Shown here in pieces: positions 1 through 40,951 of a DNA stretch of 44,348 nt. The notes under the pieces are model-generated. The model saw only the letters and a program-made list of their open reading frames with translations. It did no database searches and was not told where the DNA came from. The translations under genes and the position numbers were made by a program. Every line of letters starts with the position of its first letter. Position 1 is the first letter of the stretch. The DNA comes from a virus (Duplodnaviria > Heunggongvirae > Uroviricota > Caudoviricetes): IMG/VR virus record IMGVR_UViG_2740892273_000003. One strand, given 5' to 3'.

Positions 1-90
1 GAACAGGAGGGACAGCTGATAGAAACAGAAGCCACTGGAGCACCTCAAAAACACCATCATACACTAAATCAGTAAGTTGGCAGCATCACC
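1..90 (-). mobile_element. insA: IS1 terminal segment (terminal inverted repeat plus first ~12 codons of insA); element continues beyond the window start
   Basis: Reverse complement of 1-90 reads GGTGATGCTGCCAACTTACTGAT... followed by GTG GCT TCT GTT TCT ATC AGC TGT CCC TCC TGT TC (VASVSISCPSC), matching the IS1 end and InsA N-terminus from memory; similarity stops abruptly at 90/91. Confidence 0.75.
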
Positions 91-723
91 AGCCTTCTTG
101 AGGCTACCACCTGTTTTCAGGTGTCATTCAGACGTGATTTGCCCCAGATTGGGAAAGCACGCTTTTTTCTCAGCTATCGTCCTCTTATTTTGCCGTTACA
201 TTTCTTTTTGCATTCTAATGATTAATTTACAATAATAATATCGGTAATTATTGAGTAATAATAAATTAATTATTGCAAATGTAATTTAATTCCATCTTCG
301 CGTTATATTCCAATCTTTAATCTCCGCATGGAACAAGTTGCATGCGTGACTATATTAAGACGACTTATAACCACCAAAACATTTGCTTTGCAAGCAAAAA
401 CAGTGACCATTGACTCTAAGAAAATTCCGATCTATTGTTAGGGTCATCAAAGTTACTTAACAGTATTCCGAAATGAAAATACAAAGCAAGCTAATTGTCT
501 TATTAAACATTATTATTGCATTTATATTATTTGAGCTTTTAGCTCAAAAATTTGGTTTGAGTACATTATTTTAAAGCAAGATAAACAATATCGGGCACTC
601 TAGTTTTTATAATTAACAATTAAACGTCCATAAAATGTTATTTACTTTTCTTCGCTATTGTCATATCTTAATATAGTGGCTTACGCCACTCTACTTTCAT
701 CACATTTTGTACGTTTATGTACT

Positions 724-755
724 CGCCATGAAGCTCTTTCATGGCGATTTTTTAT
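724..755 (+). terminator. Intrinsic terminator on plus strand (CGCCATGAA-gctct-TTCATGGCG then T-run)
   Basis: 9-bp perfect stem, 5-nt loop, followed by ATTTTTTATT; points toward the tfa 3' end, implying a plus-strand transcription unit in the AT-rich 91-720 region. Confidence 0.5.
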
Positions 756-839
756 TCTTAATCCAAGAACATACTCCCTACCTATAGCAAAATCACTTTT
801 TTAACAAAAGAATAACGTATTTAGGTAATCATTACGAAT

Positions 840-1421
840 TTACCCTATAGGTGCTACTGGCCATTCAATATCCGGTGCAGTTGATGTATCAACACGGTTC
901 AGCAACACCCGATACTTTTTCCAAGCTTCCAGCAACAAGGTTTCTTTCTCCGTTGCGATCTCCAGATCCACAGCATCCTGAAGCGGCGCTATATGCTCAC
1001 TGGCTACCTGCATCAGGCTGTTTTTTGTTTCTTCCGCCTCCCGGATCCGGAACAGTTTTTCTGCTTCCGTATCCTTCACCCAGGCTGTGCCGTTCCACTT
1101 CTGAAACTCCCCTTCCGGCGACAACCAAGTAACATTTTCCGGTAACGGACCGAGTTCAGAAATAAATAACGCGTCGCCGGAAGCCACGTCATAAACCGTT
1201 TTACCCCGATGATCTTCAACGAGATGCCACGATGACTCATCACTGTTGAAAACAGCCACGAAACCAGCCGGAATATCTGGCGGTGCAATATCGGTACTGT
1301 TTGCAGGCAGACCTGTATGAGGCGGAATATATGCATCACCTTCACCAATAAATTCATTAGTTCCGGCCAGCAGGTTATAAATTTTTATGGTCCGTGCTTG
1401 TTCACTCATTCTGAATGCCAT
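840..1421 (-). CDS. tfa: Tail fiber assembly protein (lambda Tfa-like, 193 aa)
   Basis: ORF length and position immediately downstream of the side tail fiber gene; start overlaps stf stop. Confidence 0.8.
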
Positions 1422-4400
1422 TATGCGAGCCTCACAATATAGTTAAATGCGATGTTTTTGACGGTGTTTTCCGCGTTACCAGCAGCGTTAACGGTGATGG
1501 TGTGTCCATGTGAACCAATCGCAACAGAGTGCGTATGAGCACCAATACCGACAGTATGCGCGTGTGCACCCGCAGATGCTGCTGTGCCGGACAGTGAGTG
1601 TGTATGGTTTCCTTCTGAAGATGATTTACCTACCCATTGGGAGGTGCCACTGGTTAATGAGCCACTGATACCAACCTGATTAGTCCCGCTAACTTGAGTA
1701 CTCCCTGCCGGAAACATTCCAGTAGGTTGACTCCCGCTATTCGTTCTGGGCCCAGTCTGACTATGTTGGTGGGCCCCAGCTGAACTTGTAGAGCCGCTCA
1801 GACTGTGCGTATGCGCCCCGGTGTTATTCGTGGATTTAGTGCCGTAATCAAACGACGATGTGGTTTTCGTCCCCAAATCCGTACTGGATGCGCTGGCGCT
1901 GTGGGTGTGCGATTTAATGCCATCCTGTTCCTGAGACAATACGGCACGACCACTGGCGGGCTTGCCCTTAATCGTCCAGCCACGCATATCAGGGATCACG
2001 CCTGACGGATAAGCGGCTGCAAGTTTCGGGTAAGCAGATTTGTCAAAAGTCTGCCCCTGCATCAGGGCATAACCAGACGGAACGGTATCTGATGGCCACG
2101 GGATTGGTGCACCGACTGGATAAAACTCTGCAGGAGGATGAGCCGAGGTGTAAAGCTGCGCCCACGGCGACCAGTTTGCGTCGGTCGTATCCCGTCGTGA
2201 ACGAATAAATGCCGGAGCATGAGCACCGCTTGTACCACTCCAGCCGATGAGTAACTCACCTTCGCCAACGGCTGTCATCCCTTTCAGGTGAATGATATTT
2301 CCATACGCTGTTGGATATCCGTTGTTATACACCTCGTATAACTCAAGACCTGCTGCCCCCTGCGTATTGTCTGTCAGCGCGGCTACCCGACCTTTTGAAG
2401 CCAGATTAACTGATGATACTGCTGTTCCACCTGACGGTAGCGCCCCGATCTCTGATGCCGTTGGCTTATTTCTGGAGTTATAGTCCCTTCGCCAGCCAGG
2501 TGAATAATCTGTTCCGTGATTAATATAGGTAAACTGGGCGTTGGTTGTTCCGCCACCGCTGGATGTGGTCGGAGTGGTAATGCGGATCGTCATCGCTGAC
2601 TTTATCCCCATTACTTCAATGACAGCTCCGGCGAGATGAATATTACCGCAGCCAGTATCAGTAATGATTTTATTATTGCCATAAGACCAGGAACCCTTGC
2701 ACATCCAGTATGGATGGTTAAATGCTCCCTGAGAATCCAGCCACTCGATAAACTGTGCAGTCGTCCAGTTTCCTGTTGTTGTGCTTACTGACCCACCGAA
2801 GGCACGGCAGGCACCAATATTTTTCGTAAAGGTGTCTTTGCCAGGGATATCCGCACCGTTCTGATCTTTCTGCAGACGTTTCTCAGCATTGTCATTGGCT
2901 GCTTTTACTGCCTTTGGCGTTGCCGCCAGCGTTTCAGACGTGCTGTTGGTCGCGCTGCTTAGCTGGATTATCCCTTTCTGTGCTGTCGTTGCATCCTGTG
3001 CGGTGTATTTCCCGTTAGCCAGGTCATACGCGGCCTTAACGGCTTTTGGTGTTGCCGCCAGTGACTCGGAAGTGCTGTTAGTCGCACTACTGAGCTGTAC
3101 TATCCCCTTTTTCGTCGTGCTCGCATCCTCAAGCGCCACGGCGGATGCAATATCCTCTGCCCGTTTTGCCGCTGTCTCAGCGCGCGTTGCTGCAGATTCC
3201 GCCGTACTTTTGCTCTGAGCTGCTGCCGTCGCACTACCAGCAGCCTCTGTCGCCTTCGTGGATGCCGTCGTGGCGCTGCCCTTCGCTGCTGACGCCTGTC
3301 TGGTCGCCTCATCTTTTGAAGCAGACGCCGATGATGCCGATGACGCCGCCGAACTGGCGGACGATGCGGCAGCCGTTTTTGAGGATTCTGCACGGGTTTC
3401 CGACGCTTTCGCGTTCGTTTCGGATGTCTTCGCTGCGGAAGCTGACCTCGCTGCTGCCGTGGCCTGCTCAGTGGCTTCGCCAGCCTTCGTTGTGGCTGTT
3501 GAAGCGGATGATGCGGCGCTTTCTGCCGATTTTCCGGCGGCGGTGGCACTGGCTGAGGCCTGCCCGGCACTTGTTGACGCGGCGCTGGCAGACGACGCAG
3601 CCGCTGTTTTTGAGCCTGCCGCAGCTGAGGCACTCTGTCCCGCTGCCGTTTCAGAAGACCTGGCGTTCGTCTCGGACGTTTTGGCCGCCTTCGCAGAATT
3701 TGCAGCCGCCGTCGCCGAGGAAGCTGCGCTACTGGCGCTTGATGATGCGTTCGTTTCTGATGATTTTGCCGCCTCTTTTGAAGCCGACGCATCCCGGGCT
3801 GAGGTGGCAGCTTCTGACGCTTTCGTGGTCGCGGTGGATGCAGAAGTGGCTGCTGATTGTTGTGACGCTGCCGCATTCGTTTCTAACGTTTTCGCCGCAC
3901 CGGCACTGGTAGCCGCCGCGCTTTTTGAGGACTCTGCAGCGGCAGCACTTTTTGAGGCTTCAGTGGCCTTTGTTGATGCCGTTCCTGCGCTGGAAGACGC
4001 TGACTGAGCCGACGAAGCGGCCTGTCCGGCTGACGTGCTGGCTGCACGTGCTGAATCTGCAGCATCAGTCGCATGGGTTGCCGCCTCACGGGCTGATGTG
4101 CTGGCATCGCTGGCTGATTTCTTCGCGGCTGCCGTGTTCTGTGCCACCGCGGACGCGTTACGCGCCACCTCTTCCACCATCAGCTCAAAACGGCGCAGTG
4201 CCTCCGGACGGGCATCATCCTCCGTCATGGCACCGAGAAAATCATTCAGCGTACCGGGTCGGGAATCTTCATACACGGTGATGGTCCCGGCATGTGACGG
4301 CGGGAATCCTTCCACCAACAGAATAACGCTGTACTGACCGTACTCAACGTCCATGCTGTAACGCCCGGCTTCATCCGGATTTTCTGAGGCCAGCGTGTTC

Positions 4401-4510
4401 ACCACCACCGTGGTGCTGTTACGTTTTGCTTTCAGCTGGATTGTGCAGTTCTGTACCGGTTTTCCTGTGCCGTCTTTCAGTACACCTGAAATCTTTACTG
4501 CCATATTCAC
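1421..4510 (-). CDS. stf: Side tail fiber protein (1029 aa) with long Ala/Ser/Thr-rich low-complexity segment and C-terminal His-x-His repeats
   Basis: Duplicated KGI(V/I)[11 protein letters not shown](S/T)[11 protein letters not shown] fiber repeats; C-terminal GNHTHSLSG...AHAHT...AHTHS...GHTIT motif typical of phage tail fibers; sits between lom and tfa as in lambda. Confidence 0.8.
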
Positions 4511-5155: not shown

Positions 5156-8100
5156 TCAACGAATACTGATGCCGGAAGCCGCTTTTTTGGTCACAATCAC
5201 CGTACAGTCGGTGATATTGCCTGCCCCCTGATTGCCTTTCTGGAAAATCTTAAACTCCAGAGTGACGCTACCACCACCACTAGGCATATCAATAACTGCA
5301 CTGTAACTACCGGGAATGGCACCTTTAGTTTCTCTGGATGCGATTAATACGCCGTTTTTGCGAACTTCAAAACCATAACCCGTGTATCGCGTGCCTCCTG
5401 GGTTATTTCCGCTCCCCGGATCGTCATACGCTATACCGTTAAAAATAATGGGCGGAATAATAATCTGGCGGTCAAAGTTATGATCATCGCTTATGGTGAC
5501 TGTAACCGTCCCGTTTGGTGTTTCCGTGTTACCCCACGTACCAGCCTGTTTCGGAAATGATTTGGATACAGCTTTAACGAAGTCACCTCTGACCTGAGTC
5601 GCCTCCAGCATGCCCTTAATCGTACAGTTTTCATTTACCGTGACATTGTTGAGCGTCCCGGCGTTCGCATTCACACTGCCACTGATATCCGCATTTTTAG
5701 CGGTCAGCTTTCCGTCCGGAGTCAGGGAAAATGCCGATGGATTTCCACCGCTGGTAATGGTGGGGGCCGTCAGGCGTTTCAGGAACACGTCGTTCATGAA
5801 TATCTGATCGCCCTGACCAACAAACATCGGTTTTGTGTTGCCATTCGCAGGATTAACCATCGCAATCCTGTCCGCCGCCAGCAGCACCTGACTCTGCATG
5901 CCGTCAGGGGTGTTCTCAATACCGGCACCAATACCCGCGATATAAAGGCGTCCGTCCTGCATCTGCTGCAGCTTCACAGCCCACATGCTGTTCAGGTTAT
6001 TATTTGTATCAACCTGAACCTTCTGTATCTGCTGAATTGCCGCACTCTGGTCTTCCAGTTTCTTATTGACGGTCTGCGTGATTTCATTGCTGACATCCGT
6101 AATGGACGTCCTGATTTCAGCCAGGTCAGGCGCAAGCTGACCGTTATCAATCTGCGTCCACAGCTCCTGAGCCAGATGGGTTTTCCCTATCTCGCCTTTG
6201 AAAAAATCCAGATAACCGGATGCATCATCACTCGGCTGACCAACAGCCTCCACGAATGCCGATTTGCCAACGGTGTTCACACTGCGGATATAAAAGTAAT
6301 AATCATGGCCCGGTTTGATATTGATACTGGCGGCTATCCAGTACAGCGCCGTGCCAAGATAGCGTGCTGTGGTTTCAACCTGCCTGATATCCGCAATCCG
6401 CTTTTCCGAGAACCAGAACTCAAACTGTACCGTCGGATCATAAACCGCAAGATGCGGCGTGGCGGTTATCTGAAAATAGCCCGGCGTCAGCTCAATCCGC
6501 GACAGCGCTGCCGGTGCGGCAATCCGGAACGATACCGACGCCGGATCGCCCTGCTGCCCCCACGCATTTACTGCCCGGACTGTCAGCCTGTAGTTCCCCA
6601 GCGCCAGTTGTGTGAAGCGGTAAGTGGTTTCCGTCGTCCGGGCCGTGCTGACCAGCCGCTCACTGCCGTCATCCGCTGTTACGGTCAGACGGAGCAGGAA
6701 GCTCACGCCCTTCACCACCTTCGGCGTGTCCCAGCGCGCCAGCACCTGATATTCCCCGCTGTCTGCGGTGACTTCGGCAGTCAGGTGCTGCACCGCTGGC
6801 GGCGTGACACCATTCACCGTGCCGCTCTGGTCGCCGTCAAAGTGCGCCCCGTTATCCACGATGGCTTCTTTTTCCGGCACATGCTGCACGGCGGTGATGG
6901 CATACGTGCCGTCGTCGTTCTCACGGATACTCACGCAGCGGAACAATCGCTGGTGCAGCGTCGGCAGCTTCAGCCCCCACACGCTGTATTCAGCAACACC
7001 GTCAGGAACACGGCTCACTTTTACCTTCACGCCGTCGGTGACGGACTGGACCTCCACGCTGACCGGATTCCCCTGCCCGTCAACCAGGCTTATCAGCGTG
7101 GTGCCGGAGGATGGCAGCGTGATTTCACGGTCGAGCGTCAGCGTCCGGGTCTGGCTGTTCACCGCCAGCACGCGCCCGCCGGTGCGGATACCGGCATAGT
7201 CATCATCGCAGATTTCAATGACATCGCCCGGTACATGACGAAGCCCTTCAGCACCCACGCTGAAATCCACGGTCTGCGTCTCCAGCAGTTCCGTTTTAAT
7301 CAGCCACAGCCCGGCGCGGTGTGCCTGCCCCCGGCTGGTACAGCCAAAGGCATCCATCTTCGTGACGTTACGACCGTAACGGACAATGGCCTGCGTATCC
7401 TCCACAAGCTCTGTCGCCGTCTCCCAGCCGTTATCCGGGTCAATCCAGTTCACCTCAACGGCATTATGGCGGTCTTTCAGGGCGCTGAAACTGTAGCGGA
7501 ACGGCGCGCCATCATCCGGCATCACCACATTACTGCGGTTATAGGCCCACACCTTATCCGACTGTCGGTCCTGCACGAACGTCAGCGTCTGCCCGTTCCA
7601 TACCGGCATACAGCGCATCGCCGAGCAGAAATCACTGAGCACATCCCACGCCTTGCGCTGTGTGGTCAGCCAGGCATTACAGGTGATGCGCGGCTCCGTG
7701 CTGCCAAAGCCGTCCGGCACCGACTGGTCACAGTACTGGCCGATGACATACAGCGCCCATTTATCCACATCTGCCGCACCAAGACGTTTCCCCATGCCAT
7801 AGCGCGGATGGGTCAGCATATCCCACAGACACCAGGCCATGTTGTTGCTGTATGCCGGTTTTAACGTTCCGTCCCAGATACCGCTGTATTGCCGCGTCTG
7901 CGGATTATAGTTCGACGGCACCTGCAGAATGCGCCCGCGAAGATGATAATTACGGCTCACCTGCTGGCTGCCGAACTGCTCCGAATCCACCTGTACGCCG
8001 ACCAGTGCCGTGTTCGGGTAGCACTGTTTCACATCGATGATTTCGGTGTATGACGACCAGAGCGTTTTGTTCTGCAGCTGGTCTGTGGTGCTGTCTGGCG

Positions 8101-10756: not shown

Positions 10757-13314
10757 CGTCCACCTCCGGAGAACAGGCCACCATCACGCATCTGTGTCTG
10801 AATTTCATCACGGGCACCCTTGCGGGCCATGTCATACACGGCCTTCATCATCTGTGGACCTGGCAGACCATTCGTACCGTCGTTCTGAATCACCACGTGA
10901 TTGTTCTGATTAAAATTAATGCCTTCAGCCCGCCGCATCTGCGCCGGACTTCCGGCACCGCCCACATAACCACCTTCCGCATAGCCGCGCATCAGCCGGT
11001 AGAGATTCCCCACGCCAATCCGGCTGGTTGCCTCCTTCGTGAAGACAAATTCACCACGGTGAACAATCCCCGCTGGCTCATATTTGCCGCCGGTTCCCGT
11101 AAATCCCCCGGTTGCAAAATGGAATTTCACCGCAGCGGCCTGAATGGCTGTACCACCTGACGCGGATGCGCCGCCACCAACAGCCCCGCCAATGGCGCTG
11201 CCGATACTCCCGACAATCCCCACCATTGCCTGCTTAAGCAGAATTTCTGTCATCATGGACAGCACGGAGCGGGTGAAGCTGCGCCAGTTCTGTTCACTGC
11301 CGGTCAGCATCGCCGCCATATTCTGTGCAATACCATCAAAGGTCTGCGTGGCTGCACTTTTAACCTGTGACATACTGTCCGTGGCGCTCTCTTCCCACTC
11401 ACTCCAGCCGGACTTCAGGCCTGCCATCCAGCTCCCGCGAAGCTGGTCTTCAGCCGCCCAGGTCTTTTTCTGCTCTGACATGACGTTATTCAGCGCCAGA
11501 GGATTATCGCCATACTGTTCCTTCAGGCGCTGTTCCGTGGCTTCCCGCGCTGCCTGCCGGTCAGTCAGCCCCCGGTTTTTCGCATCAATGGCTGCCCGTT
11601 TTGCCCGTTGCTGCTGTGCGAATTTATCCGCCTGCTGCGCCAGCGCATTCAGGTGCTCCTGATACGTAACCTTGTCACCAAGTGCAGCCAGCTGGCGTTT
11701 GTACTCCAGCGTCTCGTCTTTATGCGCCAGCAGGGATTTCTCCTGTGCGGACAGCTGGCGACGTTGTGCCGCCTCCTCCAGTACCGCGAACTGACTTTCT
11801 GCCTTCCACAAATCCCGGCGCTGCTGGCTGATTTTCTCATTCGCTCCGGCATGCTTCTCCAGCGTCCGGAGTTCTGCCTGAAGCGTCAGCAGGGCCGCAT
11901 GAGCACTGTCTTCCTGACGATCGCCCGCATACACCTTCACGCCGGACTGTTTCGGCTTTTTCAGCGTCGCTTCATAATCCTTTTTCGCCGCCGCCATCAG
12001 CGTGTTGTAATCTGCCTGCAGGATTTTTCCGTCTTTCAGTGCCTTGTTCAGTTCTTCCTGACGGGCGGTATATTTCTCCAGCGGCGTCTGCAGCCGTTCG
12101 TAAGCCTTCTGCGCCTCTTCGGTATATTTCAGCCGTGACGCTTCGGTATCGCTCTGCTGCTGCGCATTTTTGTCCTGTTGACGCTGTTGATCTACCCTCT
12201 TTTGGGCTGCATCCCGCTCCAGGCGTTTTTTTTCACGATCATCCCAGTAACGCGCCCGTGCTTCATCGTTAACGAAATAATCATCCTTGCGCAGATTCCA
12301 GATGTCGTCTGCTTTCTTAAACGCAGCCTCTGCCTTAATCAGCATCTCCTGCGCGGTATCAGGACGACCAATATCCAGCACCGCATCCCACATGGATTTG
12401 AATGCACGTGCAGTCCTGTCTGCCCAGGTCTCCAGCGTGCCCATGTTCTCTTTCAGGCGGCGGGTCTGGTCATCAAACCCTTTCGTTGCGGCCTCGTTCG
12501 CCGCCTGCAATGCCCCGGCTTCATCGCCGGAACGCTGCAACTGAGCAACATACGCAATCTGCTCCGCCGTCACGTTATGGAACTGGCGTGCCATCGCCGT
12601 CAGCCCCGACGTCGGGTCTGTGGTCAGCTTCCCGAAGGCTTCAGCGACCTTGTCCACCTCCACGCCGGATGCATAGGAGAAACGCGCCACACTCTGGCTG
12701 ATGGACGCAATCTGAGCCTCACCGCTTACCCCCGCCTTAACCAGTGCGCTGAGTGACTCGCTGGTCTGGTTAAACGTCAGCCCTGCCGCCTGCCCGGCTC
12801 TGGACAGGACCAGCATACGATCTGCCGTCAGTCCCGCCTGATTACCGGAAAGGACCAGCGTTTTGTTGAAATCGGACAGGGTTGAGTTGCCCTGATACCA
12901 GGCATACGCCAGCGCACCGGTCGCCACCGCCAGCGAGGTGGCCCCCACCATCGGCAGGGTGATCGCGCCGGCAAGCCCCCTGAACATGGGGATCATCCCG
13001 CCGAAGGAGTCCTTAACCTGACCACCCTGTTGCAGCAGGATCAGCCAGGGATTCTGCCCCCCTGCAAGCTGCGTGGCCACGTCGGTGAACTGTGCAGGCA
13101 GCATACGCATGGCGGCTTTATACTGCCCGACGGAAATCCCCGCTTTCTGTGCAGCCAGCGCCTGTCGGCTCAGCGACTGTTCAACGACTGCCGCTGTTTT
13201 TTTCGCATCACTTTCCGTACCGGAAAAATGACGCCTGACTCTGGCCATCTGCTCGTCAAATCTGGCCGCATCCAGACTCAAATCAACGACCAGATCGCCT
13301 ACCGGTTCAGCCAT
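10753..13314 (-). CDS. H: Tail tape measure protein H (853 aa)
   Basis: Length identical to lambda H; coiled-coil rich middle; Gly-rich C-terminus; follows G/GT. Confidence 0.85.
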   Translation of the reverse strand: MAEPVGDLVVDLSLDAARFDEQMARVRRHFSGTESDAKKTAAVVEQSLSRQALAAQKAGISVGQYKAAMRMLPAQFTDVATQLAGGQNPWLILLQQGGQVKDSFGGMIPMFRGLAGAITLPMVGATSLAVATGALAYAWYQGNSTLSDFNKTLVLSGNQAGLTADRMLVLSRAGQAAGLTFNQTSESLSALVKAGVSGEAQIASISQSVARFSYASGVEVDKVAEAFGKLTTDPTSGLTAMARQFHNVTAEQIAYVAQLQRSGDEAGALQAANEAATKGFDDQTRRLKENMGTLETWADRTARAFKSMWDAVLDIGRPDTAQEMLIKAEAAFKKADDIWNLRKDDYFVNDEARARYWDDREKKRLERDAAQKRVDQQRQQDKNAQQQSDTEASRLKYTEEAQKAYERLQTPLEKYTARQEELNKALKDGKILQADYNTLMAAAKKDYEATLKKPKQSGVKVYAGDRQEDSAHAALLTLQAELRTLEKHAGANEKISQQRRDLWKAESQFAVLEEAAQRRQLSAQEKSLLAHKDETLEYKRQLAALGDKVTYQEHLNALAQQADKFAQQQRAKRAAIDAKNRGLTDRQAAREATEQRLKEQYGDNPLALNNVMSEQKKTWAAEDQLRGSWMAGLKSGWSEWEESATDSMSQVKSAATQTFDGIAQNMAAMLTGSEQNWRSFTRSVLSMMTEILLKQAMVGIVGSIGSAIGGAVGGGASASGGTAIQAAAVKFHFATGGFTGTGGKYEPAGIVHRGEFVFTKEATSRIGVGNLYRLMRGYAEGGYVGGAGSPAQMRRAEGINFNQNNHVVIQNDGTNGLPGPQMMKAVYDMARKGARDEIQTQMRDGGLFSGGGR

Positions 13315-40699: not shown

Positions 40700-40786
40700 A
40701 GTCACCTCGCTGCGGTAAATCCCGCAGTCGGGACTTCGCAATCCTGGCAAAACGAAGCGCACAACACGCGCCAGCGTGTTTTTTTG
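40700..40786 (+). ncRNA. Candidate small regulatory RNA (P1 c4 / N15 CA-like) preceding icd-ant
   Basis: Promoter-like TTGACG (~40673) with a weak -10; hairpin CTGCGG-taaatc-CCGCAG; intrinsic terminator ACACGC-gcca-GCGTGT then TTTTTTT at ~40764-40786; lies directly upstream of an icd-like gene. Confidence 0.4.
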
Positions 40787-40951
40787 TGTGTATAGACCTG
40801 CGCATATCCGAATTATGGTGGCTCAGGTGGGGCTGACTTCGGTCGGGCCGGTTTCTTCGTTTACCGGTATTGCGAACCCCGCCTGGGCTACCACCAATAA
40901 AGAGATTCGCAACTCTGGTGGTAGCACGACCAATAAAACGGAGTGCATACC

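Follow-up and report, generated by a model that had tools for sequence, protein, structure and literature searches.

YncL (b4598) is a stress-induced inner-membrane protein of 31 amino acids (aa) in Escherichia coli K-12; its levels increase upon heat shock and in minimal medium, and induction in stationary phase has been described (PMC12542507, PMC10470546). Production of YncL, like that of YohP, depolarises the membrane and condenses the nucleoid, and the depolarisation that follows YncL production in E. coli is partial and sublethal (PMC12542507). Cleavage of YncL depends on RseP in vivo, something that was not reproduced with purified RseP (PMC12542507, PMC10470546), and in Salmonella the gene is found on a short sigma-S-dependent transcript that was first catalogued as the small RNA (sRNA) STnc1110 (PMC5437024). 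A 33-aa relative of this protein is very probably encoded in the stretch of DNA described here, positions 91 to 839 of the virus record IMGVR_UViG_2740892273_000003 (Caudoviricetes), whose full 44,348 nucleotides (nt) are referred to as the window. On balance, the part of this stretch from about 296 to 757 is probably a two-part moron, in which the YncL-like gene is accompanied by a structured RNA, located in the b-region of lambdoid E. coli phages.

Morons of lambdoid phages, such as lom and bor of lambda, gp15 of HK97 and cor of phi80 and N15, have several features in common with this cassette, namely a position just past the tail-fibre genes, an atypical base composition, a patchy distribution across phages that are otherwise alike, and a promoter-like site and terminator of their own around the gene, the activity of the promoter being a prediction here. 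The cargo, however, differs in being a 33-aa protein and a putative RNA and not a protein of ordinary size, and is therefore missed by gene callers. The cassette sits just beyond the side tail fibre gene (stf) and the tail fibre assembly gene (tfa), and would be transcribed towards them. The original prediction had described an AT-rich spacer at the moron site downstream of the tail-fibre genes, holding two short open reading frames (ORFs) and a plus-strand terminator, and this outline agrees with what was found. There are no ORFs of at least 60 aa between 91 and 839, the longest being those of 52 aa (77–235, beginning within the insertion sequence IS1) and 48 aa (658–804), and the G+C content is 19–38% over 151–850 compared with 45–59% in tfa and stf. 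The two short ORFs lie where they had been placed (328–441, 37 aa; 473–574, 33 aa), the terminator stem at 723–747 is the predicted end of a plus-strand unit that converges on tfa, and the presence of the cassette is variable, with K-12 Qin being one of the prophages from which it is absent. What had been overlooked is the homology to YncL, the discrete conserved RNA of about 80 nt around the terminator, and the IS1 at the left edge. The elements of the cassette are as follows.

410–438, plus strand: sigma-70-like promoter candidate for the small gene (TTGACT, 17 nt, TATTGT; 9/12 consensus positions)
473–574 (stop included), plus strand: yncL-like gene for a 33-aa single-pass small membrane protein, as judged from homology, the ratio of non-synonymous to synonymous substitution rates (dN/dS) and frame retention
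641–669, plus strand: weak promoter candidate for the RNA, read from the sequence (TTTACT, 17 nt, TATCTT; 8/12 consensus positions)
675–755, plus strand: candidate small RNA or conserved 3′ RNA domain, as judged from fold z-score, identity and seed invariance

The product of 473–574 is a peptide of 33 aa (MKIQSKLIVLLNIIIAFILFELLAQKFGLSTLF), for which the YncL model NF000537 was the sole match among 18,950 NCBIfam models (E 1.3e-5, with residues 1–28 on profile positions 1–28 of 30). YncL was also the sole NCBIfam match for the other two natural variants of the peptide, with E values of 3.7e-5 and 7.5e-5. In a BLASTP comparison with K-12 YncL (E 2e-7), 11/28 aligned residues were identical (39%) and 18/28 were similar (64% positives). 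The alignment score of 60 was reached by 0/20,000 composition-preserving shuffles (maximum 51), and by 0/20,000 shuffles in which the N-terminal, membrane and C-terminal segments were kept apart (maximum 53). Both proteins begin with Met and a short basic N-terminus with Ser5 and Lys or Arg at position 6, followed by one hydrophobic helix with Asn at position 12 and then (K/R)-F-G, whereas the C-termini differ, with LSTLF in the phage peptide and WFI in YncL. The hydrophobic stretch of residues 7–24 and the length of the peptide fit the YncL type of about 30 aa with one transmembrane helix, a membrane location that is predicted. K-12 yncL and the phage gene each occupy a short stand-alone unit with a stem-loop 3′ of the ORF, but the phage gene differs from yncL in being phage-borne and AT-rich, and in lacking similarity at the DNA level.

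Short ORFs of around 33–37 aa are frequent across the stretch, and true and chance ORFs among them can be separated by comparative data only. Between the main lineage and a diverged lineage found in prophages adjoining sitABCD, ORF 473–574 has diverged to the same extent as its surroundings (80% identity), and the changes comprise 11 synonymous and 7 non-synonymous ones over 19.7 and 79.3 sites, giving a dN/dS of 0.09; the remaining two lineage pairs gave values of 0.04 and 0.06. The frame and the length of 33 codons are intact in 78/78 copies spanning the ORF, and a 5-nt indel of the diverged lineage falls directly 3′ of the stop codon. Purifying selection on this reading frame is evident from the comparison of the copies, and ORF 473–574 is, as judged from these alignments, very probably a real gene. 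The other short ORF that had been singled out, 328–441, fared differently, with ACG or AAG replacing its ATG in 37 of the 73 related copies that span it. Most of the copies without the start codon also stop after 5 or 25 codons, and the diverged lineage has indels within the stretch. It is not a gene.

The predicted source of the small-gene transcript is the promoter candidate at 410–438, whose −35 hexamer and flanks (CATTGACTCTAAGA) are identical in the lineage of 80% identity, where the −10 hexamer is TATCGT. In both lineages a C lies directly 5′ of the −10 hexamer, and a C at this position is a sigma-S-favouring feature. Together with the sigma-S dependence of Salmonella yncL, this may hint at a link between the candidate promoter and sigma-S. 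The protein is predicted to enter the inner membrane and to alter the membrane state of the lysogen, by analogy with the depolarisation caused by YncL.

Neither part of the cassette had been annotated previously; each belongs to a known kind, that of a YncL-like peptide and that of a prophage sRNA. In the RefSeq genomes listed, the annotation pipeline PGAP places nothing under the match to the cassette, and none of the PHROG families covers either part. The peptide is represented by three gene calls among approximately 15 billion predicted proteins, and among 1.84 billion representatives a full HMMER scan returned only the peptide itself and one variant of 43 aa. Full-text literature searches with the peptide sequence, the RNA sequence, and the terms tfaQ and sRNA gave no description of either part, and the peptide sequence itself was not found.

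The second part of the cassette surrounds the terminator-like site, which consists of a stem at 723–747 with 11 pairs (5 of them G-C) and a 3-nt loop, followed by the tail TTTTTTATTC and a U-run to about 757. Positions 1–3000 of the window contain 3 terminator-like sites against 2.7 ± 1.7 expected, and 6 promoter-like sites against 5.5 ± 2.5 expected, neither of which is above chance, so the presence of such sites alone proves nothing. What sets the terminator at 723–747 apart is the stability of the fold and its conservation. The block folds into a hairpin (675–690), a single strand of 18 nt (691–708, UCUACUUUCAUCACAUUU), a second hairpin (709–722) and the terminator stem, with the U-run starting at 748. 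Its minimum free energy (MFE) is −27.1 kcal/mol compared with −10.3 ± 2.5 for shuffled sequences (z = −6.6, with 0/200 shuffles as stable), and the strand 691–708 is unpaired in both the MFE and the centroid structures. Identity to the diverged lineage varies along the cassette as follows.

262–409, upstream of the promoter: 73–85%
Promoter and leader: 81%
473–574, the ORF: 80%
575–633, spacer: 56%, with 8 gap columns
634–674, RNA promoter: 80%
675–755, RNA block: 94%
756–839, spacer between the RNA and tfa: 65%

Apart from a stub of 15 columns at the end of tfa (53%), the spacer at 575–633 is the segment of lowest identity, and the conserved block begins and ends where the first hairpin and the U-run are predicted. 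Among 84 full-length copies, collected from viral and metagenome contigs with the terminator sequence as the only anchor, the stretch in front of the terminator (689–712, CTCTACTTTCATCA[C/T]ATTTTGTAC) has a single variable C/T site, the exception to this invariance being one copy (L035) with one base inserted at the last position. The unpaired strand 691–708 is thus more constrained than its flanks. Taken together, the alignments and the predicted fold show that 675–755 is selectively conserved and stable as an RNA block.

The RNA part is best read, from its sequence, as a base-pairing sRNA, or at least as a conserved 3′ RNA domain. It is laid out like a base-pairing sRNA of the Hfq type, with a 5′ hairpin, a nearly invariant strand of 18 nt, a small hairpin, and a terminator of 10–11 pairs followed by UUUUUU. 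An RNA of about 80 nt would be made either by initiation at its own weak promoter or by cleavage of transcripts that read through from the small gene, and would act in trans on host or phage mRNAs through the 18-nt single strand. The terminator would also stop transcription of the cassette from running antisense into tfa and stf. As for the promoter candidate at 641–669, the diverged lineage keeps its TTTACT, while the −10 hexamer there becomes TAAGTT; an alternative −10-like TATAAT is found at 608–613 and reads TACAAT in the diverged lineage.

Like the Hfq-dependent sRNAs known from prophages (PasA-D, Esr41, AgvB/AsxR, DicF, IpeX), the candidate RNA is a putative short intergenic unit of a lambdoid prophage with an intrinsic terminator, a U-tail and a conserved unpaired stretch. 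It is none of these RNAs, and no Rfam family reached its threshold anywhere in 91–839, the highest scores below threshold being those for MicC and Esr41. Its elements come in the same order as those of Esr41, with which it also has an 11-nt string (CAUCACAUUUU) in common, and its global alignment to O157:H7 Esr41 scored only marginally above shuffles (p about 0.01), but the segment through which Esr41 pairs strongly with the cirA ribosome-binding site (UCUCCAUGGGGUA) is absent from the candidate RNA, and a score of 15.6 bits against the threshold of 102 for RF02676 (E 1.8–6.9) does not make it a member. Repression of cirA or bfr in the manner of Esr41 was likewise rejected as a lead, with 77% (cirA) and 19% (bfr) of shuffled seeds pairing as well; ranks 2 and 4 among 71 start regions had been obtained for these two with a longer seed that included the second hairpin, and were lost under this control.

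Lambda-type side tail fibres use OmpC, which gave a MicC-like reading some appeal. The MicC family (RF00121) was rejected at 22.8 bits against a threshold of 90 (E 0.37–1.4), the MicC-like 5′ part (634–674) being only 80% conserved, upstream of the conserved block and no better than background. PasB has been reported near IS009 and tfa, as common in strains other than enteropathogenic E. coli (EPEC), and often as the sole such RNA in strains that are neither EPEC nor enterohaemorrhagic E. coli (EHEC) (bioRxiv 10.64898/2026.05.13.724894). The candidate RNA resembles PasB in being close to the IS009 element in tfa and in often being the sole RNA of this sort in such strains. Identity with PasB was rejected, as the window has no match to the complement of the PasB probe, even when 3 mismatches are allowed; the PasB locus in E2348/69 (NC_011601 1466261–1466343) lies between a tail assembly gene and gpJ, a setting that differs from that of 675–755.

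It is possible, if rather unlikely, that the cassette holds one gene only, with 675–755 being the 3′ untranslated region (UTR) and terminator of the yncL-like mRNA on a single transcript of about 310 nt from 410–438. The block would then be conserved for stabilisation of the mRNA and insulation of tfa and stf from antisense transcription, and would have no role in trans. This would fit the lack of a terminator between the ORF and the block, the weakness (8/12) of the promoter candidates that the block has of its own, and the failure to find either a target or covariation, and it has a parallel in K-12 yncL, which also has a stem-loop on its 3′ side, and in Salmonella yncL, which is on a short transcript (PMC5437024). 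For a mere terminator, however, 18 nearly invariant unpaired nt and two extra hairpins are superfluous, and conservation is lowest in the 59-nt spacer that separates the ORF from the block (56%, with indels), which speaks for two units under separate constraint. Furthermore, one lineage keeps the block after deletion of the ORF. In the O169:H41 strain 2014EL-1345-2 (NZ_CP024223.1, 4990–5110), a deletion of about 1 kb has removed the ORF and everything else upstream of the block, ending within a few nucleotides of the first hairpin and leaving the block fused to a remnant of tfa. This remnant brings a TATATT box to about 10 nt upstream of the block. sRNAs derived from 3′ UTRs would blur the distinction between a single gene and the two-part moron.

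Several observations weigh against a moron of two functional parts, some of them against the gene and others against the RNA. All three peptide variants (25.0, 23.5 and 22.5 bits) score below the curated whole-protein cut-off of 35 bits for NF000537, an equivalog model on which K-12 YncL reaches 68.6 bits, so the phage peptide is, on its sequence, a paralogue or relative of YncL and not an equivalog. Shine-Dalgarno-like motifs (GGAG, GAGG, AGGA) are absent from the 20 nt 5′ of the 473–574 ATG in both lineages, and from the same interval before the ATG of 328–441, in agreement with the original prediction that neither short ORF has a clear one; K-12 yncL, in contrast, has the Shine-Dalgarno sequence AAAGGTGG. 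The promoter candidate at 641–669 is weak enough to fall below the listing of the promoter scan. A limited search for targets of the RNA, covering the window and four K-12 loci, gave nothing above chance, the only candidates within the prophage being 9-mers at two start codons, which are of the common AUGAAAG type and were judged to be chance. There is little variation in the block, and 0 pairs are altered on both sides; the changes seen in the stems are three that preserve wobble pairing (U-A to U-G, C-G to U-G and G-C to G-U) and a few breaks at helix ends, so that covariation speaks neither for nor against the fold. Nearly all copies are close kin, meaning that the apparent conservation is mostly shared ancestry, and the argument from conservation rests mainly on one diverged lineage, comprising L006, L010, L032 and three metagenome copies. 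Recombination breakpoints also lie near the terminator, as in a copy (L042) that is of the main type to the left of the terminator and of the sit-linked type to its right, so that a patch of recent exchange could look like selective conservation.

Positions 440–780 of the window are present in 827/5,426 complete E. coli genomes (approximately 15%), in every case on the chromosome, and the entire 91–840 stretch is found in three isolated phages (four records), mEp332, ev099 and PhiR70_1. A tblastn search of 50,697 phage records with the peptide gave no match even though the exact DNA is present in these three, a negative that is without weight and probably due to the low-complexity filter. Outside E. 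coli, a search of one genome per species (185,579 species) for the exact 22-mer of the seed and for back-translated patterns of the peptide found nothing. The cassette module, from about 262–296 to 840, is located downstream of tfa in three settings, next to bio/ybhB, ydfJ or sitABCD. The first of these is the lambda site. At the Qin site (ydfJ) the prophages, which occur in many genomes, have approximately 96% identity to the window over 262–840 and 98–99% over 440–780, and the diverged, sit-linked lineage has approximately 80%. In K-12 Qin only the first 290 bp or so beside ydfJ are in common, and these are followed by other cargo (ynfT, ydfK, pinQ) in place of the module. Between ydfJ and tfaQ in this prophage, ynfT (L090, 6891–7004) encodes a small hydrophobic protein of 37 aa whose sequence is unrelated to the YncL-like peptide, and small membrane proteins may be a recurrent cargo at this site. 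In strain D6 (L005, 4563–4760, plus strand), a gene annotated as a 65-aa hypothetical protein lies on the strand of the cassette, between it and the ydfJ-proximal end of the prophage.

That the stretch is non-functional filler, i.e., decaying phage DNA with a chance ORF and a hairpin block acting as a recombination linker between phage modules, seems quite improbable. The region is mosaic, with left junctions that differ among the three lineages, IS1 has inserted at least twice and PGAP annotates nothing, all of which would agree with filler. A chance ORF, however, is not expected to have dN/dS values of 0.04–0.09 or a significant match to YncL, the neighbouring chance ORF 328–441 does decay, and the edges of the conserved block match the predicted first hairpin and U-run.

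The original prediction had likened the 33-aa peptide to type I toxins, and of this idea the gene for a small membrane protein stands while the toxin label does not, there being neither a complementary RNA nor conserved antisense signals. Like TisB, ShoB, Ibs, Ldr, Hok, ZorO and DinQ, the peptide is a small hydrophobic single helix, and its homologue lowers the membrane potential, but it has no cognate antisense or partially complementary RNA and no sequence similarity to these toxins, to which alignment scores were 18–35 compared with 60 for YncL. With YncL production depolarising the E. coli membrane (PMC12542507), the idea is by analogy not absurd in spirit. A type I toxin-antitoxin pair, in which a nearby small RNA represses translation of the membrane toxin by base pairing, is very improbable, because, for all that the peptide is small, hydrophobic and without a Shine-Dalgarno sequence, that its homologue YncL depolarises membranes when produced (PMC12542507) and that a conserved small RNA adjoins the ORF, this RNA lies in tandem on the same strand, neither antisense nor divergent, its duplex (675–753) with the mRNA (440–640) reaches −26.1 against −23.8 ± 3.9 kcal/mol for shuffled sequences (24% of them as good, and 77% of shuffles pairing as well when the seed alone is used), no minus-strand terminator is present in 262–640, the sole minus-strand promoter-like site (664–635) is lost in the diverged lineage, and the lineage of strain 2014EL-1345-2 keeps the RNA without the ORF.

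The other features at this end of the window are as follows.

1–90, minus strand: end of IS1, with its left inverted repeat at 68–90; it lies outside the cassette and sets the left limit of the finding
91–175, no strand assigned: recurring element of 85 bp, with standalone matches of 93–100% identity in O157:H7, O26, O111, sequence type ST131 and avian pathogenic E. coli (APEC) genomes
328–441, plus strand: chance ORF of 37 aa, its start codon lost in about half of the related copies
840–1421, minus strand: tfa (tail fibre assembly), an ORF of 193 aa whose annotation in every matching genome is tail fiber assembly protein
1421–4510, minus strand: side tail fibre gene (stf), an ORF of 1,029 aa

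The sequence at 68–90 is the left inverted repeat of IS1 (GGTGATGCTGCCAACTTACTGAT) on the minus strand, and position 91 is therefore an insertion sequence junction and no natural boundary. An identical junction is found in genome 2009C-3133, where the IS1A transposase is annotated; the matching target duplication is absent from this genome. In uninterrupted relatives (TUM9757 and phages mEp332 and ev099), the sequence continues for approximately 750 bp further left to a minus-strand gene for an AraC-family regulator, beyond which there are transposase fragments and then int/xis or a bio-ybhB flank. IS1 also divides the cassette from the AraC-family regulator gene, which is another moron in these three relatives. 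To the left of IS1, 2009C-3133 is not contiguous with TUM9757, about 550 bp having apparently been lost beside the IS1 (L002 5233–6000, compared with L001, TUM9757, 5245–6000). A second, independent IS1 is found inside the candidate sRNA in IMGVR_UViG_2563366948_000001 (around 12559–12630), just 5′ of the terminator stem, where the right IS1 end adjoins GTACTCGCC and the seed and 5′ hairpin have been replaced. IS1 appears to hit this AT-rich stretch repeatedly, at least twice (at 90/91 and in the record just named).

Matches to the 91–175 element lie near the outer ends of other lambdoid prophages. Two of these copies were inspected, one beside DUF1076 (NleG-type) cargo near uspF/ompN and the other near zinT. 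The element has two short inverted repeats (AGCCT..AGGCT and CACCTG..CAGGTG), and may be a module-boundary or recombination sequence. On the other side of the cassette, a full-length match to the Rfam family IS009 (218 bits; 880–1078, minus strand) lies wholly within the coding sequence of tfa, so that this “RNA family” overlaps a protein-coding region. The stf ORF has a very long, repetitive central part rich in Ala, Ser and Thr, with homologues of 3.0–3.4 kb in related prophages, which suggests that the differences in length arise from expansion and contraction of the repeats. At the far end of the prophage, Rfam matches above threshold were found on the plus strand for isrK (40709–40784, 52.8 bits) and, directly following it, C4 antisense RNA (40811–40898, 82.3 bits), suggesting an RNA-based immunity or antirepressor control region of the P1/P7 type.

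With this cassette, YncL, a host protein of still unclear role, gains a phage-borne relative, and the small set of prophage sRNAs from strains other than EHEC and EPEC gains one candidate. Small proteins and sRNAs routinely escape annotation, and the cassette is widespread yet has been overlooked. Both parts are testable in lysogens, since mEp332, ev099 and PhiR70_1 carry the cassette, and the record of mEp332 names MG1655 as its host. A more specific proposal, which we put forward tentatively and consider unlikely as it stands, is that the two parts form a lysogenic-conversion pair, in which a phage copy of a host stress peptide alters the energisation of the inner membrane and the co-inherited sRNA rewires host mRNAs to match. 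If this were true, the peptide could keep superinfecting phages from delivering their DNA, or could shift the lysogen to a low-metabolism, tolerant state, and HK97 gp15 and phi80 Cor are small membrane proteins encoded at this site with such effects in other phages. On this reading, presence in approximately 15% of complete E. coli genomes would place the cassette among the commonest unannotated phage cargo genes of the species. Expression of both parts, if it occurs, may influence membrane physiology, tolerance of stress or the exclusion of phages in a large proportion of commensal and multidrug-resistant E. coli lineages.

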